Of a stretch of DNA of 63,638 nt, positions 1 through 43,163 are shown piece by piece. This stretch comes from an uncultured Methanosarcinales archaeon. GTDB lineage: Archaea; Nanobdellota; Nanobdellia; Woesearchaeales; JACPBV01. Positions within the stretch are counted from its first letter, which is position 1. Every line of letters starts with the position of its first letter. A model generated the notes under the pieces. It had not been told where the DNA came from, ran no database searches, and saw only the letters and a list, made by a program, of their open reading frames with translations. The stretch is from the NCBI GenBank assembly GCA_964618315.1, contig CAZTWQ010000005.1:1-63638 (forward strand). The letters are read 5' to 3'. The position numbers were made by a program, and so were the translations under genes.

Positions 1-455
1 GAAGCATGCAAAACATGAACTGGTCAAACAACGCAAACTTCTACAGAATGTTCTACTCAGCAACAGCATTTAATGGGAATGTGAGTAATTGGTATCTCGG
101 AGATGTCTCAACAGGAATGCAAGAAATGTTCCAATCAGCAACTGCATTCAACCAACCATTAACTAACTGGGATACATCAAAAGTAACAAGTATGAATGCT
201 ATGTTAAGAGGAACTTCTTTTGACCAAAATTTAGGAAATCTAAATGTTTCAGGGGTTACAGATTTTACCAACATGCTTTATCTTACACAAATATCAACAA
301 CCAATTATGACAATTTACTAACAGGTTGGGCAGCATTAGATACTCTGAGTTCATCAGAGGCATTTCATGCAGGAACTGCCACATATTGTTTAGGAGAAAG
401 TGCCAGAAATGACACATTAATTGATACATATAGTTGGACTATTACTGATGGAGGA
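1..455 (+). repeat. End of a DUF285/BspA-like surface-protein repeat tract (MFxxAxAFNxxxxxW units) with its capping motif
   Basis: MFYSATAFNGNVSNW, MFQSATAFNQPLTNWDTSKVTSM, then NYDNLLTGW...WTITDGG. Confidence 0.85.
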
Positions 456-3400
456 TATGATTGTACAGGAGTTGAAATTCCTGACACAACTTTCCCCCTA
501 ATTAATTTCACAAATCCAACTTTAGCAAATGGAAGTTCAACTACAAACACTTCAGTTGAGATTAATGTTTCAATTGTCGAGGCTAATTTGGATGAGGTTA
601 AGTATAATTGGAATGGAACTAACTTTACAATGTATAATGATAGTTTAGTTTTGATGATGAATTTTGATAATCGAAGTGCTTTGGGTGAGAATGATACACA
701 TGTTGTGGATATGAGTGGGAGTGGGAATAATGGGACATTTACAGGAGGGGTTTCTCTTGTATCTGGAAGATATGGAAGTGCTTATGATTTTGAAGGAACA
801 AGTGATATTCTAACTTTGGATTCTGGTATTTCTCTGGTAAATGATTTTACAATTTGTGCTTGGACAGAGTTTCCTTTGTCTGCTTCTGTTCATGGAGGTA
901 GAACTCTTACTCGAGGAAGTGATGAAGATCATCATATTTATGTTGATTCAAATGGGTATCTTGGAGTATATGATAATACTGGGGGAGATAACGTAGATTG
1001 TTCTCCAGTATTTGATACGGATTTTTATGATGGATGGTATCATCTTTGTGCGATTGGTACTGGAAGTCAAACGAATTTTTTTATTAATGGAAATAATAAA
1101 TGTAATTCTTCAGCGAAAACAGAAGGACAACTTCAATATATTGGAAATTTTCAATCAGGTTCTCAAGATTGGGGAGCAAACGTAGATGAATTTAGAATTT
1201 GGAATAGGTCATTATCCGTAGATGAAATATCCCAACAATATGCCTCAAACTTAAATAAGTTTAATCAAACACAATGGTATCTTTATGTTAATCAAAGTTT
1301 GAATGCTTCAACTGGATTAAGCGACGGGGATTATACTTATTTTGCTAGTGCTAAGGACGATGCGGGGAATGAGAATATTACCGAGACTCGGACTGTGACT
1401 GTTGCTAGTGCGGATGCGACGCTTCCATATTTCACAGACTCCACTCCAACTAATCAAACAATAGCGCAAGGTTCGGCTTTGAGTTATAATATAAATGCGA
1501 GTGACGAGACTGCTTTGGATTGTTTTGCTGTGAATGACACGACGAACTTTGCGATTAATTGTTCTGGTTGGTTGACTAATAATACTGTTTTAGGATTGGG
1601 ATTGTATAATTTGAATATTACTATAAATGATAGTTCTAATAATTTGAATAGTTCTTTGATGTGGGTTAATGTTACTGATCAGACTTTCCCACTTATAGAT
1701 TATGAATTACCTACTCGTGCAGATGGAAATGTGACTGGAGATACTTCGGTTGAGATTAATTTTAGTATTAATGAATTGAATTTGAATGAGGTAAAATATA
1801 ATTGGAATGGGACTAACTTTACTTTGTTTAATGATTCTCTTGTGCTGATGATGAACATGGATAATTTGAGCTCTTTGGGAGAGAACAATACTTATTTTTT
1901 AGATATTTCTACAAAGGACAAAAATGGGACAGGCACTGCATTTAATGGGGATGAGATAGTTGCTGGAAGGTATGGAAATGCTGTCAATCTTGACGGAAGT
2001 GATGATTATATAGCAGTTTCGGCAAGTACTGACTTTAATCTTGCTCGGGATTTTTCTATCTTGTTTTGGGCTAATATAAATTCTATAACTACTGCCAGAA
2101 TAGTAGGTTATTCAGGTTCAAATAACGGATTAGGATTAGGAAGTAATGCTGGATGGGGTAGTGGGGTAAGATTTAATTATTATGCTCAGTCTAGTGATTG
2201 GAATTCAAATGAATTAACTACTGTAGATACAGGTGAATGGCATTTCTATACAGTTACCAGGACAGGAACAACTGTAAATTATTATGTTGATGGTGAAGGA
2301 TATGGAACTTCAACAAGTACAAATGGATTTGGAGATTCTACATCCACATTTATGATAGGGAGAAGAGGTAATGGTGAGTTCTTTAATGGGAAAATAGATA
2401 ATCTGATTATAATGAATAGGTCTTTGGGTTATGATGCGATTCAGCAGCATTATATGAGCAATTTAAAAAAGATAAACCAGACAAATTGGGAGTTCTATAT
2501 AAATCAATCTTTGAACGCTACAGATAGTCTAGGTATAGGAACTTATACTTATCAAGCATATGCTTCAGATAGAGGGAGTAATTCTAATTCAACTGAAGAA
2601 AGGACAATAAATATAATCGCTCCAGATAATACTGCTCCAGCAATCAATTTTACAAGTCCGACTATTGCAAATGGGACTACACAACCTAATTCAGATATGT
2701 TGGTCAATATTTCTGCTACAGATGATAATCTTGTATCTATATTGTTCTTATTGTATAATGCGTCAAATGATGTTTTTGCTAATATTTCATCCAGTTCAAG
2801 TCCGCTTTATATGAATCTGAGCTTTAATCTATCTAATCCAAGTTTTGAATCAGGTAGTGTGGGGGCTTGTGCTGATTTCTGGATTTGTACAGGGGATGCA
2901 GAGATTGCAAGTAAAACAGATGGGCAAGGCTGTACTGCACCAAGCAATGGAGATGGAACTCAATACATGAAAGCTGGTTGCGATGATTCTAAAGGGGTGG
3001 CCAATTCTTCAAATTTTGTTCTGCCTAGTGGAATGGATCATATTGATTTCTTAAGGGCAGGTGGGGCTGGTTCTGGAAGTGGATTATATGTTTATGATGC
3101 ATTAGATAATTCATTGTTGTGTTCTGCAGAAGATGGAACAGATTCTGATAGTTTCTTTGCGAATTCTTGTACTGGTCTTTCTTCTCATGCAAACAAATTG
3201 GTCTATATAAGCATAGTCGATGCCCAATCAGGGGGATGGGGGAAGACATATGTTGATAATATCAGCCTTGAAGATAGTTCTGGAAATCTTTTAGGTTCTG
3301 TTTTATCTGATGGTGTTTATTATCTGAATGGTTCTGCAACAGATCTATTAGGAAATGTTAATTTTACTGAATTAAGAACTGTGACTATAGGTGATGTTGA

Positions 3401-6400
3401 TGGTGGAACTCCGCCACCAAGTATAAACTTCACATACCCAACACTTTCGAATGGAACTGTGCAGGAAGCAACATATGCGGAGATTAATATATCAATAACA
3501 AAGGCCACTAATGAAATAATGGAAGTTATCTATGATTGGAATGGTACGAATTATACCATGTATAATAGGAGTCTTGTGTTGATGTATAACTTTGATAATG
3601 TTAGTGCAATAGGTGATGCAGGAAATAAAACAGTGGATGTTAGTTTGGATCAGCAGGAGAATGGAACTTGTATGCAGACTGGTTATGGGATTGCTTGTAA
3701 TTATACTGCTGGAAGGTATGGTATGGCACTTACGTTTAATGGTACGCTTTATGTTAATGTTACTGGATTAAGTAATATGGGTGTTACACAGACTATGTGG
3801 GTTAAGAATAGTTCTGATGTTTTATGGCATTATGTAGCTAATGTTTCTGGTACGCAGTATATTGATGGTGTTGTTGGTAGTAATAGGGTTATTCCTATAG
3901 CTAATTCTTCTAAGAATGTATTGATAGGACAAGGTTATAGTGGGTTGATAGATGAAGTTAGGATATGGAACTATTCATTGTCTAAATTGGAGATTTATCA
4001 ACAGTATGTGTCGAACTTGAATAAGTTTAATATGACTAATTGGTATCTGTATGTTAATCAGTCTTTGAATGCTACTGATGTTTTAACAGTTGGGGATTAT
4101 ACTTATCAGGCATATGCTGGTGATAATGAAGATAATTGGAATTCTACTGGAGAGAGAGTATTGACAATAAATATACCTGATACAATCAAACCAACATATA
4201 CAAGCTTTGTTAATAATGGAACTGCTACTAAAGTAAATGGTGTTGTGAATTGGTCGATAACATTAATAGATGAAACGGCATTATCAGGCTATCTTTTTGC
4301 CCATAATAATTCAGGGACATTAACTAATGGTTCTTATACTTTACTAAGTGGATCAGAATTACCAGTTGATGAAACAGTTACAATAACTTTAACTCAAGGA
4401 AATTATATCTGCGGTCAGTATTGGTTTAATGATAGTTCTGGTAATGTTAATAGTACGTTGCTTACTGAATCTGGTGCTTGCTTTACTGTTAATAATAGTG
4501 CTCCAAGTACAACATCAATTATATATCCAGTAAATAGTGGAAGCTATATAGATATTCCTTACATAAATTATTCTTCTAGTGATGCTGATTCAGATAGTCT
4601 GACTTATAATATTTATATTAATGGAACATTGAACATTTCTGGAATAAGCAGTAATGTAACTGATTGGAATGCTAGTGATGGTTATTATAATTTGACTGTA
4701 AGTGCTAGTGATGGAATTGATTCAAGTGCTAATTCCAGTTCTGTGTTGTTCAGGCTGGATACAATAGAACCTTCATTTAGTGGGAATAAAGATAATGCTT
4801 CAGCTACTACTTATAATGGGACTGATGTACAGTTGAATCTTACTATAAGTGATAGTGATTTGGCTTTCTATAGGCTAACTACTAATGATACTTCAGATGG
4901 AACATGGGTTAATGAAAGTTTGATCAGTGGGTCTGTTGGGGCTATATTTAATTATTCTATACATAACCTTAGCTTAACTGGAGGGACATTAGGATGGAGA
5001 GTATGGGCTAATGATTCAGCTGGTAATGCTAATGTTTCATCTATATATACTTTGGTTGTTCAGGATAATACGCCCCCAGTAGTGCTTACACCGCCACCTG
5101 GAATAAACTTTACAACTCCAACACCTTCTGATGAGGCTGTGCAAGCAACAACAAATGTTGAAGTTAATGTTTCCATAATAAGAACAAATCTGACTATTGC
5201 TGAGGTTGTTTATGATTGGAATGGTACGAATTATACCATGTATAATAGAAGTCTTGTGTTGATGTATAACTTTGATAATGTTAGTGCAATAGGTGATGCA
5301 GGAAATAAAACAGTGGATGTTAGTTTGGATCAGCAGGAGAATGGAACTTGTATGCAGACTGGTTATGGGATTGCTTGTAATTATACTGCTGGAAGGTATG
5401 GTATGGCACTTACGTTTAATGGTACGCTTTATGTTAATGTTACTGGATTAAGTAATATGGGTGTTACACAGACTATGTGGGTTAAGAATAGTTCTGATGT
5501 TTTATGGCATTATGTAGCTAATGTTTCTGGTACGCAGTATATTGATGGTGTTGTTGGTAGTAATAGGGTTATTCCTATAGCTAATTCTTCTAAGAATGTA
5601 TTGATAGGACAAGGTTATAGTGGGTTGATAGATGAAGTTAGGATATGGAACTATTCATTGTCTAAATTGGAGATTTATCAACAGTATGTGTCGAACTTGA
5701 ATAAGTTTAATATGACTAATTGGTATCTGTATGTTAATCAGTCTTTGAATGCTACTGATGTTTTAACAGTTGGGGATTATACTTATCAGGCATATGCTGG
5801 TGATAATAGCAGCAACTGGAACAGTACTGAGGAGAGGTCTTTGACAATCAGTTCTGTATCTGATACTACTTCACCATATTATGATAACTTTGCGAATAAT
5901 GCATCTACAGTTACAAAGATAAATGGGGTTGTGAACTGGAGTATAGACTTATCTGATGGTGTTGGGTTGAATAGTTATTATTTTGCGCATAACCAGACTG
6001 GAACATTATCGAATCAGACACTAAATGGACTGACAGAAACATCTCAGTTTATTAATTACACATTGACAATAACTCTGACACAAGGCAATAATATATGCGG
6101 TCAGTATTGGTTCAATGATACAAGTGGTAATGCAAACCAAACAGGTCTAAGCTGTTTCACAGTGGCAAATACTGCACCTACTACACCAACTATAATATAT
6201 CCTGTAAATCTTAACAATTATACTGACATACCTTACATAAACTATTCAAGTTCAGATGCTGATTTAGATGCTATAACTTATAATGTGTATATCAACGGAA
6301 GTTTGAATATAACTACAACCACTAATGTAACAGATTGGAATGCTTCTGATGGATTTTATAATTTGAGTGTTACTGCTTCAGATGGAACTGATTCAAGTTC

Positions 6401-9400
6401 AAATAGTACAGTAGTACAGTTTACACTAGATACTACTGCCCCTGTGATATCAAACTTAAGAAATACTTCAACTACAAATCAAAGTTCATTCATAGAATGG
6501 TCTTGTAATGAAGCATGTAATTATACTATATTGTGGTATAATTCAACAGATTTAGTTGGAACGATAAATAATAATACATTTGCTACTTCACATAATCCTT
6601 TCTTAAGCTCATTAGTGAACTCAACAACATATATTGTGAACCTTACTGTTTATGATAATATGGGTAGTTCTACTGTCAATAATACGTTTAACTTTACTAC
6701 TGATAAAAATGAGATAATAGTTGATTCAATACCACCATATTATGATAACTTTGCGAATAATGGTTCTACACTGACAAAGATAAGTGGTGTTGTGAATTGG
6801 AGCATAGACTTATCTGATGGTGTTGGGTTGAATAGTTATTATTTTGCGCATAACCAGACTGGAACATTATCGAATCAGACCCTTAAATCGTTATCTGGAG
6901 AAAGTCAATCTGTAAATGAAACTTTGGCAATAACATTGACTCGTGGGAATTATATCTGTGGTCAGTTCTGGTTTGATGATGCAAATGGTAATGTTAATAG
7001 TACATTACTTACTGAATCTGGTGCTTGCTTTACTGTTGCAAATACTGCACCAATTACACCTACGATATATTATCCTGTAAGTGGTGGGAATTATAGTGAT
7101 ATTCCATATATTAACTATTCAAGTAGTGATGCTGATGGTGATTCATTAACTTATAATGTTTATATTAATGGAAGCTTGAATGTAAGTACTTCTGTGAATA
7201 TAACAGATTGGAATGCTTCAGATGGTTATTATAATTTGACAGTTAGTGCTTCAGATGGTATTGATAGTTCGGCTAATTCGAGCGTAGTAGAATTCAGGTT
7301 GGATACAATACAGCCTTCATTTAGTGGAAATAAAGATAATGCTTCATCTACAACCTATAATGGAACTGATGTGCAGTTGAATCTGACTATAAGTGATGAT
7401 GTTGGGTTGAGTAATTATAGGTTAACTACTAATGATACTTCAGATGGAGTATGGGTTAACCAAACTCTAAATTCAGTAAACGGAGCGACTTCAGTAACTG
7501 CTATCTTCAACTACTCAATACATAACTTCTCAATACTAGGTGGTACCCTTGGATGGAGAGTATGGGGTAATGATTCTGCTGGAAATGTAAACGAATCAGA
7601 AACTTACACCTTAACAGTTCAATCAAATGATAATATAAACCCTAATTCAAACATAACAATAAACAACACGCAACCAAAGATAAACGACATAGTAAATATT
7701 TCCCTAAACGTATCAGACAACATAGCATTAAGCTCCTGCTGGTTCTACAACAATATGTCTAAGCAAAACTCTTCAGCAATAAGCATTTCAGGAACATCAG
7801 ATCATGATACATGCTTTAATGTAACAACAATAAATGTTTCACAAGGCAAACAAGTATTATTCATAGGCTATGTCAATGACACCGGTGGAAACCTAAACTC
7901 TTCACAAACAACAATAACGGTTGCTAATACAGCCCCTATAACTCCTAGTGTGAGTTATCCAGTTAGTGGTGTAAATTATACTGATATTCCTTATATCAAT
8001 TATTCTTCAACAGATGCAGATAGTGATAGTCTGACTTATAATGTTTATATCAATGGAACATTAAATATATCTGGAATAAGCACAAATGTAACTGATTGGA
8101 ACGCTTCGGATGGTTATTATAATTTGACTGTATCTGTTTCTGATGGAAGTGATAGTTCTGCTAATTCTAGTGTAGTAGAGTTCAGGTTGGATACAATAGA
8201 ACCTTCATTTAGCTCTAACCAAACAAATGCTTCAGCTACTACTTATAATGGGACTGATGTGCAGTTGAACTTAACTATGAGTGATGGTGTTGGGTTGAGT
8301 TATTATAGGTTAACTACTAATGATACTTCTGATGGAAGTTGGGTTAACCAAACATTAACAACTGCAAACGGAGCAACTTCTGTAGGGGCTATCTTCAACT
8401 ACTCAATACATAATTTCTCAATAATAGGTGGGACATTAGGATGGAAGGTATGGGGTAATGATTCTGCAGGTAATGTAAACGAATCTCAGGTATTTACTTT
8501 AACAATTCAATCGAATGACAACACTAATCCACAATCAAACATAACAATTAACAACACTTCGCCAAAGATAAATGATGTAGTGAATATTTCAATGAATGTA
8601 TCTGATAATGGAGCTTTAGATTATTGCTGGTTCTACAACAATATGTCTAAGCAAAACTCTTCAATAATAAGCTTGTCTGGAACATCGGATCATAGCCTAT
8701 GCTACAACACAACAACAATAAACTTAACACAAGGTAAAAACATATTATTCATAGGCTATGTAAATGACACAACAGGAAACTTAAATTCTTCAAGAACTAC
8801 AATAACAGTAGCTAATACAGCACCGACAACGCCTACTGTTATTTATCCTGTTAGTGGTGGAAATTATACTGATATTCCTTATATTAATTATTCTTCGTCT
8901 GATGCAGATGGTGATAGTCTGACTTATAATGTTTATATTAATGGGAGTTTGAATGTAAGTAGTTCTGTGAATATAACTGATTGGAATGCTTCAGATGGTT
9001 ATTATAATCTGACTGTTTCTGCTTCTGATGGAATGGATAGTTCTGCTAATTCCAGTTCTGTGTTGTTTAAGCTGGATAGTACTGATCCAAGTGTGAATAT
9101 TATCTATCCATCTGATGATCTTAATGTTTCTTCTAATTCCATTGACTTTAATGCTACTGCGAGTGATGGTCTGGCTTCTTCGCTTACTTATTATTGGATT
9201 GTGAATGGAACATTGAACAGTACATCTGTTGATAGCAATAGTACGTTTAATGCAAGTGATGGATATTATAATTTAACATTGCTTGTGTCTGATGGACTAA
9301 ATAATGGGTCTGATACTGTGTTGTTTGCTTTGGATACTACTGCGCCTTTAGTATCAATCACAACCCCATTAGATGATACAATTGCTGGATGGAATGTGTT

Positions 9401-30400: not shown

Positions 30401-33400
30401 AAACTCCACTTCAGTCTTATTCAGATTAGACACAAAAGTACCTTCATTCACTAACAACCAAACAAATGCTTCCTTAATGAGAATTAACGGAAACGCAACA
30501 TTCAACATAACAATAACAGACCAAGGATCAGGGTTATCTTACTATATATTCAGCTGGAACGGAACAGGCGTATGGGACAACCTAACAAATGCAACAATAA
30601 GCAGTAGCTTAGTAAACATATCAATAAACAAATCTACCAATCTATCTCAAGGAAATACAATTGGTTATAGATGGTACGCTAATGATTCTGCAAATAACTG
30701 GAATAGTAGCATACTAAGAACATTCATAGTAGCAAACACACCACCAACTACCCCTGTAATAATATACCCAGTAACAGGCAAAAACTACTCAGATATACCT
30801 TACATAAACTACACAGCAAATGATGTAGACTCAGACACAATAACCTATCACTTATTCATAAACAACACAATCAACATTACAGGAATATCTACAAATGTAA
30901 CAGACTGGAACGCTTCTGATGGCTTCTATAATCTAACTGTAACAGCAGATGACGGAACAACTAACTCATCAAACTCAACTGCAATATACTTTATGCTAGA
31001 CTCAACTCAACCATCATTCACAAACAACCTAACAAACACAACACCAGCAATAAATGAATACTTAAGGATGAACATAACAATAATAGAATCAAACTGTCAT
31101 TATTATACATTCTTCTGGAACAATTCAGGAACCTTAACAAATGACACATCCCAATTATGTACTTCAACAATATTATCAACAACAAAACAAGTAACAACCG
31201 CCCATCAAAACATCTGTTGGGGATACTGGGTAAATGATACTGCCGGGAACAGTAATTCCAGCACTATAAGCTGCTTTACAGTAGCCAACACTGTACCAGT
31301 TATACCAACGATAACTGCCCCTTACAATACAGAAATAAACAACACAATAAAGATAGAATTCAACTCAACCGACATAGACAATGATACAATTACCTACCAG
31401 ATATACATCAATGGAACGCTGAACATAACTACAACTATGAATATTACTGATTGGAATGCATCAGATAGTTATTATAATCTGACTGTTACAGCTAGCGATA
31501 TTTATGGTTCAAGCCAAAATAGCTCCGTAGTAAATTTCAATTTAGATACAACTGTTCCAGCAGTCTCGATAGTCTACCCAACTGATGGATCGAACATAAG
31601 CTCTAATTCGATAGACTTAAATGTATCAGCAGCAGATGCAAGAGCAACTTCATTGACTTATTATTATGTAATAAATGGAACAATAAATACGACATTGATT
31701 GACAGCAACACAACATTAAATGCTTCCGACGGCTACTATAACTTAACAGTATTTGCATCAGATGGGCTGCAGAATGGTTCTGATTCAGCTTACTTTATAT
31801 TAGACACATTGGCACCGTCATTTTCTGAAAATAAAACAAACGCAACAGCCACAACACCAAGATATAATGATATAGTGCAAATTAATCTAACTTTAACAGA
31901 CTCATCAGGATTAGATGGTTATTTCTTGACGCATAATGGCAGCGGAACTATGACCAATGGATCATATAAGGGTATCTCAGGGACCAACCATACAGTAGTA
32001 GAGAATATCACAATCTCTAACTTAACGAGAGCTGAAATATTTGTATGGCAAGTCTGGACAAATGATACATTAGGAAATGTAAATGTAAGTGATATATATA
32101 CACTAGAAATAAAGAACACACCACCAACAATACCTTCAGTTATTTACCCTGCAAATGCCAGTGTACATTATAATTTAACTGCAATAAACTATACTTCAAC
32201 AGATGTTGATGGGGACAGCATAACATACAATATTTACATCAATGGAACTTTAAATATTTCAGGAGCAACTAATAATATAAGCGGGTGGAATATAAGTGAT
32301 GGGTATTATAATCTTACAATGACTGCTAATGATGGTCTAGAAAACTCAGCTAACTCAACATCCACATTCTTCAAAATAGATTCTTCTGGCCCACAGGTAA
32401 TATTAAACTACCCAACTGATGATACATGGCAGCAGTCAAGTTCAGTATGGCTTAATTACACCGTTGTAGGTGGTAGTTTAGATACATGCATAATCTATGG
32501 TAACTTTAGCGGAACCTGGAAAGCAAATAAAACAAACTCAACTCCAACATCAAATGTTATGGATTCAGCACAAGTATCATTAGAAAATGGAACATATAAA
32601 TGGAATGTTTATTGTAATAGTTCATCAGGATTAAGCAACTGGGCACCTATTAACAACACATTTAACATAGATTCAGTAGAGCCTTCAATTGATCTAGTTT
32701 ATCCATCAGATAATGTTAATCTAACCTTGACCAATTTGAATTTCAATTGGACTGTATTGGATAATATTGATACCACTTTATTATGCAATATAACAATCAA
32801 TGATACTGTAAATGTTAGTTATATTGGAGCTAACAGTGGCAATTATACTAACTATACTATAACTGATATTGCTAGTGGTACTTACAATTGGAATGTAACT
32901 TGTTGGGACAGCGCAAATAACATAAACACTTCACTAACTAGGACATTTACTTTAGATTCAACTACTCCAGTTTCAAACATATCACTAAACAACTCATCAC
33001 CTAAAGTAAATGAAGTGATAAACATATCGATGAACGTCTCTGATAATAGAGAATTAAGTGCATGCTGGTTCTACAACAACATGTCTAAGCAAAACTCCAG
33101 CTTAATCAGTTTATCAGGAACATCAGAACATGACTTATGCTACAATATAACAACAATAAACCTCACTCAAGGAAACGATATATTATTCATAGGCTATGTA
33201 AATGATACTTTAGGCAACTTAAACTCATCAAGAACAATCATTACAGTAGCAAACACTCTACCTACAATACCAAACGTTACATACCCAATAAACCATACAA
33301 TATATGAGGGCATACCTTACATAAACTACACATCTACAGATGCAGACAATGATAATATAACTTACTATATCTACATAAACAACACACTAAATCATACTTC

Positions 33401-36400
33401 AACAACTAACCTAACAGACTGGAACGCCTCTGATGGCTTCTACAATCTAACAGTATCTGCATATGATGGAATAAACTCAAGCAGCAATAGCTCAGTAATA
33501 CATTTCACCCTAGACACCACACCTCCAACAATTATATTCACAGATCCAACACCTGATAATAATTCATTACAATCAGAACAATACATAACAATTAATCTTT
33601 CAATAACAGAAACAAGTTTAGATAAAATAGTATACAACTGGAACGGAACAAATTACACTTATTACAATGACTCTTTAGTATTGATGATGAATTTTGATAA
33701 TATCTCAGTTTTAGGTGAGAACAGCACTTATGTTGTTGATATAAGTGGAAGTGGAAATAATGGTACTGCAGGGGGAACTGCTCAAGTTAATACCACAGGT
33801 AAATTTGGTAATGCTTTATGGTTAGATGGCAATAGTGATTATGTGGAGATTACAGATAGCCCATCATTAGATATAGGGAATAATGAGATGACTATTACAG
33901 CTTGGGTTTACCCAAGGACTTTTGTTAATTCTGATGAGATTATTAAAAAAGATGGAGCTTACATATTAAGATTGAGTGGTACTTCCGGAGCTATAGAAGG
34001 TTATGTGTGGGCAAATACACCTACTAATAAAGTCGGAGCAAGCACTAATCTCTTAACACCAAATGATTGGAATCATGTTGCTATGACTTACAACTCAACT
34101 TACCAACAATTATTTGTTAATGGTGTACCAGATGCAACTGATCCTCAAACAGGCAATATAACTAATAGTGCTACCAATTTGATGATTGGTTCACACCAAA
34201 ATAAAGCTGGTGAATTTTTTGACGGATTAATAGACGAAGTAAGAATCTGGAACAGATCATTAAGCAAAGATGAAATCTATCAACAATATATTTCAAACCT
34301 TAAGAAAATAGATCAAGACAGCTGGGAACTATACATAAACCAATCCTTAAACGCAACAAACACATTACCAGACAACAATTACACATATCAATCATTCGCT
34401 TCAGACACTCTAGACAATTGGAACTCAACAGAACAAAGAATAATTACAATAGACTCAACACCACCAGCATCAAATATGAGCATAAACAACACATCACCAC
34501 AAATAAATGATGTAATAAACATCTCAATGAACGTTTCTGATAACCTCGAACTAAGTGCATGTTGGTTCTACAACAACATCTCCAATAGAAATTCATCGTT
34601 AATCAGCCTTTTGGGAACTTCAGAACATGACTTATGCTACAACATTACAACAATAAATTCAAGTTCAGATATATTATTTATTGGTTATGTAAATGACACA
34701 GCAGGAAACATAAACTCCTCTCAATTAATAATATCTGTAGCTAACACACTACCTACAGTGCCAAATGTTACATTCCCAGTAAACAACACAAACTACACAG
34801 ACATCCCATACATAAACTACTCTTCTACTGATGCAGATAATGACGAAATAACCTATAAGATCTACATAAACAATACCCTAAACCACTCCTCTACTACAAA
34901 CCTCACAGACTGGAACGCCTCTGATGGCTTCTATAACTTAACAGTATCTGCATATGATGGGATAGGGAGCTCAGCAAACTCAACACCAATATATTTCATC
35001 CTAGACTCCACCCCACCATACTTCTCAGACAATAAAACAAATGTGACAACAACAACTCCAAAATACAACGACACAGTACAAATTAATTTAACCTTAACAG
35101 ACTCATCAGAATTAGGGGGTTATTTCTTTGCCCATAACGAGACTGGAAACCTAACAAATTTAACTTATAAGGATATATCTGGAACATCTTACACATTATC
35201 AGAAAATATAACAATCTCTAACTTAAAGAGAGCTCAAATACTTGGCTGGCAAGTATGGGTAAATGACACACTAGGAAATGTAAACCTAAGCCAAATATAC
35301 ACAATAGAGATAAGAAACACACCTCCAACAATACCAAATATCACTTATCCAGTTACAGGCAAGAACTACACAGACATACCTTACATAAACTACTCCAGTA
35401 CTGATGCAGATAATGAGGAAATAACATACCACATATTCATAAACAATACTCTAAACATAACTGGAATAAGCACAAACTTAACAGATTGGAATGCTTCTGA
35501 TGGCTTCTACAATTTAACTATAACAGCAGATGATGGAACAGATAGCTCAGCAAACTCCTCAACAATCTATTTTAGACTAGACTCAACCCCGCCATCATTC
35601 TCTAACAACAAAACAAATGTGACGACAACAACTCCAAAATACAACGACACAGTACAGATCAATATAACATTATCAGATTCACTTGAGCTAGATGGGTATT
35701 TCTTTGCCCATAATGAGACTGGAAATCTAACTAACCTAACTTATAAGGATATATCTGGAACATCTTACACATTATCAGAAAATATAACAATCTCTAACTT
35801 AAAGAGAGCTCAAATACTTGGCTGGCAAGTATGGGTAAATGACACACTAGGAAATGTAAACCTAAGCCAAATATACACAATAGAGATAAGAAACACACCT
35901 CCAACAATACCAAATATCACTTATCCAGTTACAGGCAAGAACTACACAGACATACCTTACATAAACTACTCGAGCACTGATGCAGATAATGACACCATAA
36001 CATACCACATATTCATAAACAACACTTTAAACATCTCTACAACAGTAAATGTGACAGATTGGAACGCTAGTGACGGATACTATAACTTAACAGTATCAGC
36101 AGATGATGGAACAGATAGCTCAGCAAACTCCTCAACAATATATTTCAGACTAGACGGAACAAACCCAATCTGGTTTAATAACAAAACAAATATCACACCT
36201 TTAACTAAATCAGGAGACTTAGTCTATTTCAACATAACTCTTAATGAAACAAATCCAGATAAATATGTATTCAGTTGGTATAACGGAAGCATTTGGCTAA
36301 ACAACACACCAGCCACTTACACAAATAACCAAGAGATCCAAGTTAACAAAACAATAAACATACCTTATGGGGATATAAACTGGACCTGGTACATAAATGA

Positions 36401-39400
36401 CACATTAGGCAACCTAAACCAGACAGATATATGGGGCACAACAATAGTCTTACTCAATACAACTTTAAACAGTCCAGCAAATGATTCTACCTCAACAAGC
36501 ACAACTGTAATATTCAATTGCTCAGCAATATCAGGCACCAGTATAGCAAACATGACATTATATGCAAACTTCTCAGGAGCATGGCAAGCCAACCAAACAG
36601 TTAACCTTACAGGAACAAGTAACACAACAACATTCACAAAGACACTGAAAAACGGAACAACTTATATCTGGAACTGCTTAACTTACGACACTTCATCCAA
36701 CACAGATTGGGGTGATTCAAACAAAACTATAGTAGTTGACACATCAGTTGTCATAAACTCAATCTACAAAAACAGAGTTTTCTACGAAGATGGATCTCCA
36801 ATAAACATCACAATAAGAACCAATCAAGCAGATCTTACATTATCTGCAAACTTCTCATGTATTGACTCAAACTATGCAGGTCAAGAGACAGTAACTGACC
36901 ATGGCGATGGAAATTATTCAATTAATTACACAATTAGCAGTACCAATAATGTAGACACAACACCTTGCGCTTCAGATGCAACCCAACTATGCCATACAAG
37001 ATGTGAGATCAACATCACCCAAGATGGAACTCGCTTAACAGCCATTAACTTAAGCCTATATAATGGAAACGAATCAAATAATGGACAATGGTCTCCCCTC
37101 TATGTCTCAAGAGCAATCTCTTGCGCAGGAGGTTCAGATGCAGACTACTTTGATGAAGGAACAACTTGTCCAAATATCTATTATGACGGATCCAGTAATC
37201 TAACTGGTTCAAGAGTAGATCCTTCCTTCGCAGCATTCATGTACAATAATCCAGCAGGAGCAGAAACATTATGTACAGACTCAAGTGATGATTCAAAGGG
37301 CGCAGACCCTTCAAGTGGTAACTGTGATGATTTACAATGTGCTTCTGTTGTCTATGGTGAACCAGTTGGTGATAAAGATGCAGATAGAGCATATACTTGT
37401 GGGGTAAACACCAAAGGGTGGCGTGACGATCCATACACTACAGATGATACAGATTCTTGTAACTTAGATACAAACCTATGTTATATCACCATAGGAAATG
37501 CAATTACAGGATATACATCATTTGTTTACACTAAAACAGTAGGCAAAGAGGGTAATTTCAGCCTTCAGATAAGCCAAGATGATGCAAAACTAGATGGTAA
37601 TGGCCTGCAGTTCCAAGCATATAACTTTAACAGCACATTAGGAATCTGTGATGCAAATTCAGATAAATTCACAATATTGAACAAAAATCCAACTAACTCA
37701 TTAACAAATGAATTAAAAGATCTTGCAGATAGCTGCTCAAATGTAGGAATGGCACAAGCATTAACAGGTACAGATGCAGGGACAGCTTACGCAAATGACG
37801 ATCTTAATATAACCTTCAAAATCTCAGTAGACACATCAATCAGCGGAGAAGGTATCTTAATAACAAGAAAAGTAGGTGCAAGTACTTTAACAGGCAAGAT
37901 CAACTTCAGCATTACAGATGATGGAGCAATATGGGAACATGACACTTCTTGTACAGATTCAACAGATAATGACTTAGACTACTTAGTAGATTGCCTTGAC
38001 ACTGATTGTGACAATTACTCTGGAAATATTGCAGATTTAACAGATGTTTGCACATTTGGAAATGAAAGCAAATATGCCCTACAAAATAATACTTGCTTAG
38101 ACAGCTTTGATAATGATGCAGATGGTACTACTGACTGTACATGGGATAGTTCAGCATGGGACACAGACTGTAACAACACATGGATCAATTCAGCTGACAC
38201 ATACGATTCGAATGATGTAAGTGAAACAAGAAATGGAACTTGTCAGTTAGGACTAGAGACTACATGTGGTGATGGATTTGATAATGACCGAGATAGGAGC
38301 TATGATTGTGGATTAGAACAAATAACTGGCTACACGACCATAGTTTATGCCTTAGATCCAACAGATCCAAAAATAACCTACAGTGGAGGAACAGGCACTT
38401 CAAATAACCCAGATGCAGAATATGATTGTGCATCTTATTGTAGAGACTTAAACGAAAGTAACAGTGTAGAAAACGGCTCAGAATGCCTAGATGGAAAAGA
38501 CAATGATTGGGACTTCTATAATATAAACACTACAACTCAAAATACAACAGGTGGAGGTGTAGATTGTAGGATGGTAGAATATGACCTAGATTGCAACAAT
38601 ACTATGATGAATACTACAATAAATGCTACTTGCCAATTAATCAATGAAATAAATTGCAGTGATGGGTATGACAATGACCTAGATGGAGAATATGATTGTG
38701 TTGTCTCAGCAACAGGCTCTAACACAACAAACCCTATCTTCCAATACAGCCTCTCTGGCTCTAACACAGCACATGGGGAATATGATTGTCAAACTACCTG
38801 TAATGTTTCAGCTAACTTCGAAAACACAGCTGAAAAATGCTCTGATACAAAAGACAATGACTTAGACTTCTACACAATTACGGGCTGGGACACAGTAACA
38901 AACCAATATACAGCAACAAATAACAATGCTTCTGGAGCAGGGATGGATTGTAGATTCAATAATGATGGATTTAATTTCCCCGATCTAGACTGCAACGGCA
39001 CAGATATGACCGGCTCAGGACAAAACTGTGAACTTGGACATGAACAAAGCTGTGATGATAATTATGATAATGACCAAGATAATGTGTATAACTTTGGAGC
39101 TGATAGAATAACATCAACTAACGGCACTGATTGTGATGATTATGATTGTAAGGGAAATGCTGTTTGCCCTTCAACAGAAACAGCTTCGCTTTGCCTAGAT
39201 GGAAAAGACAATGACTTAGACCGTTATGTATTCAATATAACTGATTACCTGCTAGATGAAGACAGATCTGTCAACTCCACGGGGGGTATTGACTGTGTCT
39301 ACAATGATGGATCTACAAGACCTACATCTTTATCATACATATCTGGAAACTATAATGATGCAACAACAGGAAGATATAGTTATGATGTAGATTGTAACAA

Positions 39401-42400
39401 CACAATCATAGGATCTACCACGGAAAAATGCGAACTGATAAATGAATTAAACTGCTCAGATGGATTTGATAATGATCAAGATTCCTATGTAAGACCTGCT
39501 GCTTCCCCATCAGGAACAGCAATACAAACAGCAGGCTGGACAGAAGCAATCTACGAAGCATACTTCCCTTCACAATACAATACTGCAGCAGACTGTGATG
39601 ATTATTCCTGCGGTGGAAACTCGGCTTGTCCACAAAACGAATCAAACAATCAATGTCAATATGGTGATTGTGGTATAACAAAGAACTGGTGCTTAGACGG
39701 CATAGATAATGATCTAGATAACTACACCAGAGATGGGAAAACGGCAAATTCTACAATAGGAGCTGGAATAGATTGTCAATGGAAGGATATACCTTATGAT
39801 TCAGACTGTAATAATACATTGATCAATGATTCAGGTATTGTTGGAATGTGCCAGATAGCATGGGAATATAATTGTACAGATGGTCTAGATAATGACAGAG
39901 ACCTAGGGATCTATGAATTTGATGCAGGATACAACACAGGCATCGATTGTGATGATTATAATTGCCACGGCGTAACCAATTCTTCAGGAGACTATATCTG
40001 CTCTGATTCGCCAACCCAAATCCAGGAATTAAACTGCTCAGATGGAATAGATAATGACCTTGATTCATATTATTGGAATGGTACAGCATACTCACAAAAT
40101 TCCTCAACAGGAACAGATTGTTCAGATCCTGACTGTTCAGGCAGGATAGGTCCATCAGGAGTTAGTTGTGGGGATGAAAACAACAAAGCAAGCTGTATTG
40201 ATTACAATTTATCATTCTTTGCAGTAGATAATGATGAAGATGGTCCAGCTAATTGTTATGATTCTGGATGCTATAATCAGACATTCTATGGAAGATATTG
40301 CCCTTCATATGAAAACATCACAATAGATGCTTGCGCAGATGGCTTAGACAACGAAATTACTTATCAAGATGCTAGTGTTGCAAAAACAGGCTCAAGTAGA
40401 TTACAATACTTAGCAGCAAACAAGAACCTAACTCTTCATTCAGGAGATATAGATTGTGCAGATACAAATTGTATAGGGAAAATCTCTTTAATCTCTGGAA
40501 GCTATGGATATTGTACTGATGTAAATACAGCAGCAACAGAAAGCAATTGCGCAGATAACCTTGATAATGATATGGATGGTTTGACAGATTGTATCGATAC
40601 ATCAGATTGCCCAGAAGGAAGTACATCTTGTCCAACACAAAACCCAACAAATAATGTGGCAGGCGCAACATCGGGCTGGAATAACACAAATGATGGAAGA
40701 TTATCTGCATGGTCTTCAGTCTTACCACTAACAGATTCAGCAAACAATTGGAATGCATTCACAATAGATGCAGAATGGACCTCTGACGCATACCCTGGAA
40801 CATCTCTTAGTTGGACATTCACAGATTCTGCAGGAGCTCTTGACAACAAACAACTTACTTTCTACTTAGGGACCTTAACAGGAACAATGTTACCCTTACA
40901 ATATCAGCTTTCTAATGATAATTGTAGCATATCTGGCTCTAGCTCTTCATTATTCAATGCACCTTCTGTAACTCAATACGCCAACGGTTATGTATTGGCT
41001 GTTTCTTATAGTACAAACATACCTGCAGGTCATGCACTAAGCTTGAGCATATCATGTAATATTCCAGGTGGAGTTGACATAATAAACAACTCACCTTATG
41101 ATTACACAATAAACATAGATGATAGTGGAACATCATATGCTCAATTGATAGATACAGCAGGAGATAAACAATATATCCACGAAACAGAAGGAGCAAACAT
41201 AACTGGTTTTGTAACAAGTGAAAGCACAACAGTATTACAACGCCTAAGATCAGACAACACTATCTACAGATTAAGAAGCACAGACACAATAACTATAGAA
41301 GCTAACGCATCAGATGCCTTAGGAAACCCACTCTACAACACAGGAGTAGATTATTGCTCATTTGACAATAACTCAGGAAACTATGCATATAATGGTTCTA
41401 CTAAAGGAGATTGTGAAGAATCAATCACTATTGCAGATGGTGAACATAATATATCTGCAATAGCCATAGATGGTATTGGTAACATAGGATTACCATCAAC
41501 TATAACAATAAATGTAACAACATTACCTAGGCAAGATACAGATATCTACTGTACACTAGACAACTGCTCAACATCATTCCCAGCAAAACAACATTATGAC
41601 TCCACAGAATCATTGCCAATAGGCGTAAACTTCACTAGTGATGTAGCTGGCTTCAATGAAAATGCAACCGGCTGTACAGTAAAAGCAGAGACTAACAGCA
41701 CAATAACTAATTTAGGAACAATACCACTAAACACATCAGTAGACAATAAGACTGCTATCTGTAATGGTGCAATATCATTAAGCAGCCTAAGCGACAACTT
41801 CTATTATATCACAGTAACAGTAACTGATGATGATGATAACAACGCAACGTCAGGAATAGCTCCAAACAACCAAAACTTCGGGAAAAAACCTGTCTGGATC
41901 TGCGACTACATGGGAACACCAAATAACTGGACCTGCCTTACTGCTGATGAAAAAGTAAGCCCTGTTGTTCACACAGTAACAGCCACTCCAACAAAGGGTG
42001 AACCGGGGACTACTTTCAACATAGTAGCCAATGCAACTGATGATCTTGGAATAAATTCAGTAGTTGCCCATATACAAAAACCAGATGAAAACAACATAAT
42101 TAATATTACATTAAGTCTAGATAATGGCCTGTATCTAGGTTCTTGGAATTCTACTGGCAATACAGATGGGTCATATATTATTGATGTAGTAGCTAGTAAT
42201 ATAGTCAATAATGAAGGGGGAAAAGAAAACGGAGCAATCATTGCATTGGCCCCATACTCACTCAACACATCTATTAATTCCTCGATAAATTTTACAGCAA
42301 ACGAATATATAATAATCAACGCTACATCAGAAGTAGGCACATGGTTGAACATATCTACCAATATAAATGTAACCTCTTCCGTTGCTATGGCAGGATACAC

Positions 42401-43163: not shown

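Follow-up and report, generated by a model that had tools for sequence, protein, structure and literature searches.

An open reading frame of at least 14,386 codons for a predicted giant LamG/Ig surface protein in a probable DPANN archaeon

Little is understood of how DPANN archaea recognize and hold their partner cells; the few systems in culture implicate giant surface proteins with LamG and Ig domains. Giant repeat adhesins are also familiar from bacteria (MpIBP of Marinomonas primoryensis, with a mass of 1.5 MDa, SiiE, LapA and Bap-type proteins), where type I secretion exports them; they have RTX repeats at the C-terminus and, at the N-terminus, a module that retains them in the outer membrane. 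Among the Nanohaloarchaeota, the giants described measure 5,998 aa in Ca. Nanohaloarchaeum antarcticus, 8,553 aa in Ca. Nanopetramus and 9,409 aa in Ca. Nanohalococcus (SVXNc_0300) (PMC6642349, PMC10266531). Giant DPANN LamG/Ig surface proteins have been proposed to act in host attachment, and one was confirmed by proteomics (PMC6642349, PMC10266531, PMC5498576); an expansion of LamG-rich proteins is specific to host-associated DPANN (PMC5498576, PMC10266531), and in one DPANN genome four SPEARE genes make up 4% of the total (PMC6642349). Halomucin of Haloquadratum walsbyi, an archaeal protein of 9,159 aa, has been ascribed a protective role (PMC6642349, PMC11573180).

We analyzed a stretch of archaeal DNA of 63,638 nt (hereafter, the window) that encodes a still longer protein, and compared it with these systems. 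Like the SPEARE and other Nanohaloarchaeota giants, the predicted protein is mostly extracytoplasmic, combines LamG with Ig-/fibronectin-like adhesion domains, carries a transmembrane (TM) segment near the C-terminus, has a proposed role in host interaction and, as in SPEARE, would take up a comparable share of the genome; it is at least 50% longer. However, SPEARE proteins possess a large conserved cytoplasmic VirB4/TraG-like ATPase domain (first read as a restriction enzyme) and an adjacent gene for a VirB4-like ATPase. Membership in SPEARE was rejected, as the 52 residues after the TM segment matched no family and the adjacent positions hold SRP RNA and ilvE instead of a VirB4/TraG ATPase gene. 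With the bacterial giant adhesins, the protein has in common a long tandem-Ig extender that would hold a ligand-binding cluster off the cell, acidic repeats of a probably cation-binding kind and a similar mass; in contrast to them, it is archaeal, has a C-terminal TM anchor and N-glycosylation sequons, and bears its heads over two-thirds of its length. An RTX adhesin was likewise rejected: no RTX/HemolysinCabind match was found in the C-terminal 2,200 residues (Pfam, NCBIfam), which end in the TM segment and a basic tail.

The closest relatives are LamG/Ig proteins of Woesearchaeota, Pacearchaeota and Nanoarchaeota, which have PARCEL/DUF285, Laminin_G_3 and Big_13-type Ig domains, low GC and high sequon density in common with the giant. 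Proteins with the same LamG/Ig modules and lengths of 2,000 to at least 7,625 aa occur in many MAGs, one of them a complete Woesearchaeota chromosome of 1.84 Mb. In a word-indexed homologue search, covering matches of up to ~1.75 times the query length, the homologues bear names of Ig-like or LamG proteins and belong to Nanoarchaeota, Pacearchaeota or Woesearchaeota. One relative of 3,039 aa (L086/L163), encoded on the 1.11-Mb contig Ga0209042_1000001 and also in the Woesearchaeota MAG SI048_bin101, is 77% identical to the first 210 residues of the giant and also ends in a TM helix and a basic tail. Another (OY970338.1, at least 7,625 aa) has 15 LamG and 20 Ig domains and lacks a C-terminal TM segment, in contrast to the 7 LamG domains, ~90 Ig domains and TM segment of the giant. 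Unlike these two relatives, the giant contains eight split cassettes and a 900-residue acidic double-disulfide region, and its length is 2 to 5 times that of any relative measured. The giant gene is therefore a new member, of extreme length, of a known class of DPANN LamG/Ig surface proteins.

The open reading frame and its assembly

Frame +3 was found to be free of stop codons from nt 3 to nt 43160. Given the base composition (34.9% GC), ~1,069 stops would be expected over this length (log10 P of no stop, approximately –482), and the remaining five frames contain 681–1,676 stops each over the same span. An earlier note, made from the letters and a list of open reading frames, had put the ORF at no fewer than 14,385 stop-free codons and about two-thirds of the window. 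We counted 14,386 codons and 67.8%; the lower figure is the count from the first in-frame ATG, at nt 6, but the true start lies elsewhere, since the reading frame continues beyond the 5΄ end of the window. In-frame domains were detected from residue 1 to residue ~13,840 (Pfam, NCBIfam and a self-built HMM), and GC3 is uniformly low along the ORF (0.22–0.30), as it is in the neighbouring genes. The giant open frame is real and coding over its entire length; the protein has at least 14,386 residues, a predicted mass of 1.557 MDa and a pI of 4.05. The features are summarized in Table 1.

Table 1. Positions of the giant ORF, its modules and repeats, and neighbouring features (nucleotide positions in the window)
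Feature	Position (nt)	Strand	Remarks
Giant ORF	3..43163	+	14,386 sense codons and TAA at 43161-43163; 5΄ end cut by contig end
PARCEL/DUF285 repeat domain, C-terminal end (aa 1-172)	3..518	+	Pfam DUF285, E = 3e-20
LamG/Ig zone (aa 173-3518)	519..10556	+	Four Laminin_G_3 alternating with ~29 Big_13-type Ig-like domains
Laminin_G_3 domains of LamG/Ig zone	792-1229, 1992-2441, 3618-3995, 5298-5675	+	
Exact repeat pair, 558 nt	3570-4127 = 5250-5807	+	Offset 1680 nt = 560 codons
Exact repeat pair, 430 nt	9456-9885 = 13359-13788	+	Offset 3903 nt = 1,301 codons
Display-cassette zone (aa 3519-8639)	10557..25919	+	Eight cassettes, LamG 5-6, more Ig domains
Cassette head, F5/8C discoidin	10557-11396	+	Weak match: 21.0 bits against curated cut-off of 28.2
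LamG 5	11760-12227	+	Within display-cassette zone
Cassette heads, ALK/LTK-type TG (three)	14466-15749, 16023-17282, 21921-23117	+	
Cassette head without family match	17559-18458	+	
Cassette head, MAM	18732-19676	+	E = 3.6e-21
LamG 6	20259-20696	+	Within display-cassette zone
Cassette head, Cys-rich, without family match	23907-24644	+	
Cassette head without family match	24906-25895	+	
Ig-like run, ~38 domains (aa 8639-12247)	25917..36743	+	Sole interruption LamG 7
LamG 7	33825-34277	+	Inside ~38-domain Ig-like run
Exact repeat pair, 235 nt	35161-35395 = 35737-35971	+	Offset 576 nt = 192 codons = two Ig units
Cys-containing stretch without family match, ~390 aa	36744-37922	+	Directly before double-disulfide repeats
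Acidic double-disulfide repeats (C.DG.DND.D...C), aa ~12640-13560	37920..40682	+	NCBIfam NF033662, E down to 1.6e-15
Conserved membrane-proximal module (aa 13960-14314)	41880..42944	+	Three beta-sandwich domains, Cys-rich knot, acidic/Pro linker
Sole TM-type hydrophobic segment (aa 14315-14334, LFPIKSLLISLLIILIIVMV)	42945..43004	+	Kyte-Doolittle; AF2 helix
Lys-rich tail, 52 residues	43005..43160	+	Predicted helical
Archaeal SRP RNA gene	43178..43451	+	Rfam RF01857, 139.5 bits against gathering score of 96.5
ORF2, second family member	59847..63638	+	3΄ end cut by contig end

The assembly risk raised by the earlier note proved real: three exact repeats were located within the ORF, all longer than short reads and all with offsets divisible by three. 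LamG 3 and LamG 4, which lie inside the 558-nt pair, are identical in sequence, and the 430-nt pair sits within a 1.9-kb duplication of 83% identity. Because these repeats outlast short reads, the exact length of the ORF depends on how the assembler handled three loops. What they threaten is copy number, and the reading frame is unaffected; the copy number of the 1.68-kb unit (3570..5807) is uncertain, and with all three loops deleted the minimum would be 36,999 nt, or 12,333 codons in frame.

We further considered the possibility that the whole ORF is an artefact of short-read threading through repeats within or between paralogues, the real gene or genes being well below ~12,000 codons. The exact repeats exceed both read and k-mer lengths; both ends of the contig fall in PARCEL/DUF285 repeats, and the 3΄ limit of the window falls exactly where a 55-nt exact repeat ends (63356-63410 = 63584-63638); the genome has at least two paralogues, including ORF2, and the relatives hold several each; and the other assembly found for the same population is fragmented, being a 3.4-kb contig. 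However, the repeat pairs are not interleaved, so that within the contig only the counts of loop traversals are ambiguous, and beyond their exact cores the copies are no more than 83% identical, a divergence expected of real duplications with gene conversion. A chimera of unrelated loci would have to stay in frame and stop-free at each join, yet the architecture shifts in an orderly fashion along the ORF. Moreover, an independent JGI contig of 3,422 bp (Ga0427877_009262) matches window positions 40823-44244 at 99.62% identity and so confirms the final 2.3 kb of the ORF, its stop codon and the SRP RNA gene. When the C-terminal 886 aa were used as the query of the word-indexed search (matches of up to ~1.75 times the query length), the sole match was a fragment of this gene, 758 aa long, in another JGI assembly. 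Relatives of at least 7,625 aa are also present in a complete, single-record chromosome assembly. On this evidence, we regard an assembly artefact as quite improbable. Giant repeat genes do break short-read assemblies, and since in this case both contig ends lie in repeats and three exact repeats lie inside the gene, such genes are probably under-counted.

Domain architecture and display cassettes

The giant protein contains ~90 Ig-like domains (counted with an HMM of our own, for which Pfam Big_13 matches served as the seed), 7 LamG domains (located by HMM iteration; the Laminin_G_3 Pfam scores reach 124 bits, the cut-off being 27.6), 8 display cassettes and 1,001 N-X-S/T sequons. The design proposed in the earlier note, an Ig stalk with many lectin-like heads and a C-terminal anchor, holds, the "many lectin-like heads" amounting to 7 LamG and 8 cassette heads among ~90 Ig domains. 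The run of ~38 Ig-like domains would form a stalk or extender, and the double-disulfide repeat region of ~900 residues, judging from its sequence, is probably cation-binding and stiff. Domain scans of the giant protein detected no catalytic domain and no protease or toxin-like domain. Pfam searches at E values of up to 1 with the C-terminal 2,200 residues and the three family-less cassette inserts gave nothing significant, and neither did sequence searches of the PDB with the C-terminus and two of these inserts. These three heads and a further ~1,200 residues have no assignable fold (aa 12248-12640, aa 13561-13959 and smaller gaps).

Each display cassette consists of a conserved N-half (~50 aa) and C-half (~88 aa), present in 8 paired copies with a different insert in each. 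Their co-occurrence and the predicted model suggest that the halves are parts of a split scaffold bracketing the inserts, the pLDDT of the scaffold halves being only 50–75. Three of the inserts resemble the extracellular TG domain (TNF-like and glycine-rich; 7nx1, 7lrz, PF12810) of metazoan ALK/LTK both in sequence (PF12810, 27.4 bits against a cut-off of 24.5; phmmer to LTK in the PDB, E = 1.2e-15) and in predicted fold (AF2 pLDDT >90; Foldseek to 7nx1, E = 7.5e-17, target-normalised TM 0.72, 30% identity). In ALK/LTK the TG domain is part of a receptor kinase, whereas in the giant protein it is an insert in the beta-sandwich scaffold of an archaeal adhesin. Bacterial proteins, and some eukaryotic ones, widely contain domains of the PF12810 type (1,288 matches among the candidates scored). 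A literature search on ALK-like glycine-rich domains in prokaryotes was unproductive, and to our knowledge no ALKAL-like ligand is known in prokaryotes. If these assignments are true, the ALK/LTK ligand-binding domain has prokaryotic homologues among the inserts, displayed in a split-scaffold cassette of a kind not described before, and an ALK/LTK-type glycine-rich domain may serve as an adhesin head in archaea. The eight-cassette arrangement was absent from the two relatives tested with our own HMMs (the L086 and OY970338.1 proteins).

We also considered a target of a diversity-generating retroelement (DGR), and rejected this, as none of the genes in the window encodes a reverse transcriptase and a clear A-specific mismatch spectrum was seen in none of the repeat pairs. 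One repeat pair, the PARCEL tandem repeat at the 3΄ end of the window, has 71% A mismatches (5/7).

The description of the product as a surface protein is supported by its acidic pI, by its sequons (the observed number compares with 398 ± 17 in shuffled sequences, and the neighbouring enzymes have 0.32 per 100 aa) and by a lone hydrophobic segment that lies at the very C-terminal end, just ahead of a Lys-rich tail. A Kyte-Doolittle scan found one hydrophobic cluster in 14,386 aa, and the tail would be cytoplasmic by the positive-inside rule. Upstream of the TM segment lie at least 14,314 residues, all in extracellular-type modules. The C-terminal module, with the Cys knot motif CxxxWxCxxWSxC...GxQTRxC and ...FSxFGIFG in its consensus, was matched in a set of 1.84 billion representatives by 924 relatives (E ≤ 1e-3) and is mostly C-terminal in the examples checked. 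The AF2 model of the C-terminus (pLDDT 85.5) comprises three beta-sandwiches, the TM helix and basic helices; for the module, Foldseek returned only generic Ig, macroglobulin and adhesin-extender matches, including 6xi3, deposited as 'tetra-tandem repeat in extending region of large adhesion protein'. An archaeosortase substrate of the PGF-CTERM type was rejected, as the last 187 residues gave no NCBIfam match and the tail after the TM segment has 52 residues rather than a few. The FSSFGIFG motif upstream of the TM segment resembles 'PGF-pre-PGF' by eye only; some homologues bear that name at JGI.

ORF2, gene neighbourhood and lineage

The remainder of the PARCEL/DUF285 domain and the N-terminus of the giant protein lie off the contig. 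ORF2 begins with ~77 residues followed by a hydrophobic segment (aa ~78-111), ~1,000 aa of lineage-specific domains and PARCEL/DUF285 repeats; a PKD match in it is weak and sub-threshold (E ~1e-3, 19.4 bits against a cut-off of 27). The L086 ORF unites, ~145 residues apart in one protein, a part resembling ORF2 (63% identity) and a part resembling the start of the giant, the latter being aa 867-1075 of its 3,039 aa (77% identity over ~210 residues). By this sequence resemblance, ORF2 probably gives a picture of the missing N-terminus, which would then comprise a hydrophobic export signal or anchor, more PARCEL repeats and possibly a PKD-like domain, for a full protein of roughly 15,000–16,000 residues.

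An even closer relation can be envisaged, in which ORF2 and the giant ORF are two ends of one gene of ~15,800 aa on a circular or looped contig with a few PARCEL units missing. Both lie on the + strand and break at the same PARCEL phase (...GSMQDMNWS against SMQNMNWS...), and the L086 homologue carries both parts in a single protein. The same-phase break, however, is expected if the assembler halts at the conserved core of each repeat unit, and in relatives several paralogues stand close together. In addition, the contig ends have no exact overlap (22 of 26 nt match), and it is implausible that a circle of ~64 kb bearing SRP RNA and a leu/ilv cluster would be a replicon; a circular contig was ruled out by the absence of a terminal overlap. 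We therefore consider a single gene very unlikely, and treat ORF2 as a second family member. The L086 flanks have no neighbour genes in common with the window and no SRP RNA, so that synteny cannot settle this question.

Downstream of the giant ORF, the SRP RNA gene starts 14 nt past the stop codon and is followed by ilvE, a 743-aa ORF without an assigned family and a transporter; the contig also encodes ilvD, ilvC, leuB, leuC and leuD. The earlier note placed the DNA in a probable DPANN archaeon. SRP RNA and TrmB bear out the archaeal part of this placement, and the DPANN part derives solely from the labels that depositors gave to the MAGs of the relatives. The nearest relatives occur in MAGs labelled Woesearchaeota, Pacearchaeota or Nanoarchaeota (best identity, 77%), and the placement draws on lineage-specific surface-protein modules in a window without ribosomal protein or rRNA markers. 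The label 'uncultured Methanosarcinales', which some of the related MAGs bear, is probably wrong. We dropped IlvD as a lineage marker because the labels of its matches are mixed (Methanosarcinales, ANME-1, Desulfobacteraceae, CPR and DPANN); a look-up for exact copies of this IlvD returned no record.

Since the related genomes measure 1.1 to 1.84 Mb, the giant gene would be ~2–4% of the genome. The investment would be large, as the earlier note proposed for a small DPANN genome, but the share taken by the four SPEARE genes provides a precedent (PMC6642349). As far as the leu/ilv genes indicate, the organism is less reduced than the DPANN stereotype. Because enzymes of leucine, isoleucine and valine biosynthesis are encoded on the contig, an obligate host is not implied, and heavy spending on surface tethers need not accompany extreme metabolic reduction.

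Proposed function of the giant protein

In our reading, the ORF is probably a genuine gene whose product is a giant, membrane-anchored and, by prediction, heavily N-glycosylated surface fibre of a Woesearchaeota-like archaeon. The protein would be exported through Sec and glycosylated outside the cell. From the membrane outward would follow three beta-sandwiches with the Cys knot, the double-disulfide repeats and the ~38-Ig extender; the eight-cassette zone, the LamG/Ig modules and, at the distal end, the PARCEL/DUF285 domain would lie farther out. This order presupposes that the N-terminal hydrophobic segment is removed by cleavage or does not serve as a second anchor; were the segment kept, the protein would form a loop and not a fibre. 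With ~90 Ig domains of ~4 nm each and the other modules fully extended, the reach would be roughly 0.4–0.6 micrometres, which may be comparable to or beyond the size of a DPANN cell. At least 15 dissimilar heads could provide multivalent binding of broad specificity to glycans or proteins on a cell, particle or matrix, and overall the protein would act as a long-range tether. By analogy with the described DPANN giants, host attachment or host sampling is plausible.

The protein might instead be chiefly structural or protective, forming a glycocalyx, an S-layer-like canopy or a matrix. Its extreme glycosylation potential and acidity would suit such a coat, as would two-end anchoring if an N-terminal hydrophobic segment like that of ORF2 and L086 stays uncleaved; the leu/ilv genes suggest a weaker dependence on a host, and halomucin offers an analogy of function, drawn from the literature and not from sequence (PMC6642349, PMC11573180). 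However, a long Ig extender with at least 15 dissimilar heads of binding type (LamG, discoidin, MAM, TG) is the hallmark of adhesins and not of a uniform coat, a single-copy chain of 1.5 MDa is costly as coat material, and the expansion of LamG-rich proteins noted above is specific to host-associated DPANN (PMC5498576, PMC10266531). A mainly protective role thus appears rather unlikely, and a tether remains the reading that we prefer. We put forward only tentatively its strongest form, namely a correct assembly, a single chain of ~15,000–16,000 residues and a tether of ~0.5 micrometres that outreaches its own cell and, with at least 15 heads, captures or samples partners at a distance.

Set against known giants, a protein of at least 14,386 residues exceeds the longest figure from a cultivated archaeon (9,409 aa) more than 1.5-fold, whereas its class was already known. 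If true, it would be the longest polypeptide documented for DPANN and among the longest in archaea, and the known size range of giant LamG/Ig surface proteins would be widened by about half. The analysis yields a modular map (anchor, stiff acidic repeats, 38-domain extender, eight swappable-head cassettes and LamG/PARCEL tip) whose modules can be separately expressed and tested for ligands.

Coding character and assembly of the giant ORF

We examined the giant open reading frame (ORF), which encodes a 5'-truncated surface protein, and found 14,386 sense codons in frame +3, stop-free from nt 3 to 43160 and closed by a TAA codon (43161-43163). The earlier note had claimed at least 14,385 stop-free codons, which was borne out; it had counted from the ATG at nt 6, which is internal because the frame extends past the 5' end of the window. 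From the composition (34.9% G+C), ~1,069 stops were predicted over this span (log10 probability of none, ~ -482), and each of the remaining five frames contained 681 to 1,676 stops. GC3 was 0.22-0.30 throughout, as in the neighbouring enzyme genes, and in-frame protein domains spanned residues 1 to ~13,840 (numbered from the window's first codon). Moreover, a 3,422-bp contig of another JGI assembly (L081; sample 3300037805) matched positions 40823-44244 with 99.62% identity, which is independent confirmation of the ORF's final 2.3 kb, its stop and the downstream DNA. Near position ~24000 inside the ORF, GC skew, positive up to there, becomes negative and AT skew increases, where Gly-rich cassettes change to a Thr/Asn/Ile-rich Ig run; this is a codon-composition effect and no replication signal.

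Internal repeats of the ORF were at most 83% identical in a BLAST-level self-comparison. Within those duplications, exact k-mer analysis found three perfectly identical repeat pairs (see the table), which exceed the length of short reads and assembler k-mers and are therefore the sites where the refutation named in the earlier note, chimeric joins, could apply. Judged from the contig sequence, a chimera of different loci is possible. The pairs do not interleave and their offsets are all multiples of three, so that within the contig the number of loop traversals is the sole ambiguity; with all three loops deleted, the ORF would comprise 36,999 nt (12,333 codons), still in frame. PARCEL/DUF285 repeats lie at both contig ends, and the second copy of an exact 55-nt direct repeat, spaced by one PARCEL unit (76 codons, 228 nt), finishes at the window's last base. 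Assembly breaks in tandem repeats typically leave a contig end of this kind, and the 3' break is repeat-induced. Because of the three exact repeat pairs and of the repeats at both contig ends, the exact length of the ORF is provisional.

Features of the window and of the giant protein (nt, window positions; aa, residues of the giant protein)
Feature	Position	Strand	Remarks
PARCEL/DUF285 domain, terminal part	aa 1-172
LamG/Ig zone	aa 173-3518		four Laminin_G_3 alternating with Ig-like domains
Cassette zone	aa 3519-8639		conserved half-module pair present eight times, each with a different insert
Near-continuous Ig run	aa 8639-12247		~38 Ig-like domains
Acidic double-disulfide repeats	aa ~12640-13560		NF033662, E down to 1.6e-15
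LamG domains (7)	aa 264-409, 664-813, 1206-1331, 1766-1891, 3920-4075, 6753-6898, 11275-11425
TM-type segment	aa 14315-14334
Cassette insert, F5/8-type-C discoidin-like			weak, sub-threshold
Cassette insert, MAM domain			E=3.6e-21
Cassette inserts, glycine-rich (TG; three)	nt 14466-15749, 16023-17282, 21921-23117
Exact repeat, 558 nt	nt 3570-4127 = 5250-5807		offset 1680; k-mer analysis
Exact repeat, 430 nt	nt 9456-9885 = 13359-13788		offset 3903; k-mer analysis
Exact repeat, 235 nt	nt 35161-35395 = 35737-35971		offset 576; k-mer analysis
Archaeal SRP RNA gene	nt 43178-43451	+	RF01857, 139.5 bits
Branched-chain amino-acid cluster	nt 43731-58612	-	ilvE, ilvD, ilvC, DUF1805, leuB, leuD, leuC
743-aa ORF	nt 44707-46938	-	Sigma70_r2/r4-like matches, weak, sub-threshold only
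417-aa ORF	nt 50609-51862	-	no family match
29-nt exact direct repeat	nt 53993-54021, 54077-54105		84 nt apart
55-nt exact direct repeat	nt 63356-63410 = 63584-63638

Architecture of the giant protein and its missing N-terminus

The protein has a predicted mass of 1.557 MDa and a pI of 4.05. HMMs seeded on Pfam matches found ~90 Big_13-type Ig-like domains and the LamG domains listed in the table, and no catalytic domain was found at the thresholds used. The sole TM-type segment of the whole protein in a hydropathy scan is followed by a 52-residue Lys-rich tail, and the last ~430 residues were modelled (pLDDT 85.5) as three beta-sandwiches, a small Cys-rich knot, the TM helix and two basic helices. 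This C-terminal module, for which no curated family was found in Pfam or NCBIfam, had 924 relatives (E<=1e-3) among 1.84 billion representative proteins, mostly with the module at the C-terminus in the examples checked, and is a recurrent anchoring unit. We counted 1,001 N-X-S/T sequons (7 per 100 residues), compared with 398 +/- 17 in shuffled sequences; the neighbouring enzymes contained 0.32 per 100 residues. The protein thus has one membrane anchor, which lies at the C-terminus and is followed by a short basic tail, and an ectodomain of >14,300 residues that consists of binding-type and spacer-type modules only and has extreme glycosylation potential. The Ig-like and LamG domains, the eight cassettes, and the one TM segment with its tail support the design of Ig-like stalk, lectin-like heads and C-terminal anchor suggested earlier. 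Its distinguishing features are its length, the eight cassettes with swapped heads, ALK/LTK-type TG domains among them, and the long acidic disulfide-repeat region.

Each cassette consists of an N-half of ~50 residues (...IYPT..N.TQN.FFNVTVNVSC.G..CGEINVTLDP) and a C-half of ~88 residues (...TPF.TN.TNPYN...W.VNATG...F.VYAN.T....SN.T.KWNVTI) around its insert. From their strict co-occurrence, we infer that the half-modules form a scaffold displaying an inserted head, the pLDDT of the scaffold halves being only 50-75. For three inserts, relatives were looked for and none was detectable. A glycine-rich insert searched against the PDB (phmmer) matched the TG (TNF-like plus glycine-rich) domain of LTK/ALK (E=1.2e-15), and the AlphaFold2 model of a glycine-rich cassette (mean pLDDT 83, insert >90) matched PDB 7nx1 (Foldseek E=7.5e-17, TM 0.72). 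By sequence and predicted fold, the glycine-rich inserts are homologues of this TG domain, which binds ligands in the metazoan receptor kinases LTK and ALK. PF12810-type domains were widespread across public sources (1,288 matches among the candidates scored); the few source-named proteins were bacterial (Bacteroidia, Flavobacteriales, Psychroflexus) or eukaryotic.

A second ORF of this family (ORF2) starts at an ATG at 59847 on the + strand and is open past the 3' end of the window. It encodes ~77 N-terminal residues, one hydrophobic segment (aa ~78-111) and ~1,000 residues of lineage-specific sequence, followed by a PKD match that is weak and sub-threshold (19.4 bits vs the cut-off of 27, E ~1e-3) and by PARCEL repeats. 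Relatives of its N-terminal ~1,000 residues were 1,844-2,578 aa long and came from Woesearchaeota/Nanoarchaeota MAGs (L082, L083, L085). In a 3,039-aa homologue encoded on a 1.11-Mb contig, residues 221-722 matched ORF2 residues 761-1264 (63% identity) and residues 867-1075 matched giant ORF residues 1-210 (77% identity), which indicates a family order of ORF2-type N-terminus, PARCEL repeats, giant-type body and C-terminal TM segment. By this sequence comparison, ~1,000-1,400 N-terminal residues of the giant ORF are most likely absent from the contig. The simplest reading of ORF2 is a second paralogue. That ORF2 and the giant ORF are one gene is improbable, since large paralogues sit near one another, several at a time, in relatives, no overlap was found between the two contig ends and a 64-kb circle would implausibly have to bear the SRP RNA gene.

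Comparison with known giant proteins and proposed function

DPANN archaea are already known to encode giant LamG/Ig surface proteins. Giant surface proteins have been proposed to attach DPANN cells to hosts (PMC6642349, PMC10266531, PMC5498576), and Laminin_G_3 was reported in almost all archaeal proteins >5,000 aa (PMC11573180). SPEARE proteins reach 8,553 aa and halomucin ~9,000 aa (PMC6642349), and according to a metagenome survey a few archaeal proteins exceed 10,000 aa, most of them from Asgard archaea (bioRxiv 10.1101/2023.11.21.568195). The comparison with known giants proposed in the earlier note sets 14,386 codons against 9,409 aa, the largest protein of cultivated archaea (PMC10266531). 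In three word-indexed homologue searches the matches were no longer than ~1.75x the query length, so that giants missing from those lists are not evidence of there being none. On a complete 1.84-Mb Woesearchaeota chromosome (OY970338.1; L199 and L238), a related ORF at 1,108,168-1,131,046 encodes at least 7,625 aa (left end open in the segment examined; upper bound ~9,580 aa) with 15 LamG and 20 Ig-like domains; cassettes and a C-terminal TM segment were looked for in it, and neither was found. Further paralogues, of 4,739 and 5,098 aa, are encoded within ~150 kb of this relative.

Other assignments were rejected: the giant protein lacks the large cytoplasmic ATPase-like domain and neighbouring VirB4-like gene of SPEARE, an RTX adhesin was ruled out by Pfam/NCBIfam scans of the C-terminal 2,200 residues without a match, an archaeosortase substrate was not recognisable in an NCBIfam scan of the last 187 residues, and the ORF is not a DGR target, as the window's genes include no reverse transcriptase and no repeat pair had a clear A-specific mismatch spectrum. 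It is a new, extreme member of the Woesearchaeota/Pacearchaeota LamG/Ig/PARCEL surface-protein family; the kind of protein will not surprise specialists, and its size and cassette architecture are of interest.

The giant protein shares its design logic with bacterial giant repeat adhesins and with the proposed host-attachment proteins of DPANN archaea, and an attachment function is plausible. An N-terminal signal would direct Sec export, and N-glycosylation would follow extracellularly. The acidic repeats together with the 38-domain Ig run would form a stiff extender, and the cassettes, LamG domains and PARCEL domain would make up an array of 15 or more dissimilar binding sites at the distal end. 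If each Ig domain spans ~4 nm, as is general for tandem Ig adhesins (MpIBP, for example), the extended chain would reach ~0.4-0.6 micrometres. It is possible that the protein is instead a protective glycocalyx, or a loop anchored at both ends. Candidate attachment partners would be host cells, other microbes, particles or polymers.

Source organism and neighbouring genes

The SRP RNA gene starts 14 nt past the TAA of the giant ORF, and L081 likewise has it directly 3' of the giant secretory-protein gene. From this gene and a TrmB-family regulator encoded in the window, the contig is archaeal; no phylogenetic marker proteins were found among the window's genes. IlvD was rejected as a lineage guide, as its relatives at 62-83% identity were labelled Methanosarcinales, ANME-1, Desulfobacteraceae, candidate-phyla-radiation bacteria and several DPANN groups, a mixture that suggests a shared horizontal-transfer pool. 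For ORF2, relatives of the N-terminal part occurred only in Woesearchaeota- or Nanoarchaeota-labelled MAGs, plus one 'Methanosarcinales'. Over its first 400 residues, the giant ORF shared 77% identity with a protein from 'Candidatus Woesearchaeota archaeon SI048_bin101', a gene also present on the 1.11-Mb metagenome contig; the other 74 loci were mostly labelled Woesearchaeota, Pacearchaeota or Nanoarchaeota, and the named homologues of the Ig run came from the same three groups. Through the depositor labels of these MAGs, the results indirectly support the earlier suggestion of a probable DPANN archaeon. Low GC, ilv synteny and LamG/PARCEL genes were observed in 'uncultured Methanosarcinales' MAGs (L001, L003, L013, L175, L177, L192, L200, L228) and in Woesearchaeota/Nanoarchaeota-labelled MAGs alike, and because these gene families and low GC are common to both, the Methanosarcinales label is probably an artefact. 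Judged from the relatives (the 1.11-Mb contig and the complete 1.84-Mb chromosome), the giant ORF would account for some 2-4% of the genome.

The contig with the giant ORF also encodes IlvE, IlvD, IlvC, LeuB, LeuC and LeuD, a set that is unusual against the generally reduced metabolism described for DPANN archaea (PMC10936187), and obligate host dependence is therefore less safely assumed. Interspersed in the cluster are a Mem_trans transporter, an AP_endonuc_2/TIM-barrel protein, a metallo-beta-lactamase-fold (MBL) protein and an FAA hydrolase (FAH), and the order FAH-MBL-IlvD-transporter-IlvE is kept in five low-GC MAGs (L001, L003, L013, L072, L080). The Sigma70_r2/r4-like matches of the 743-aa ORF are odd for an archaeon. 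The 29-nt direct repeat is intergenic, between the FAA-hydrolase gene and ilvC.
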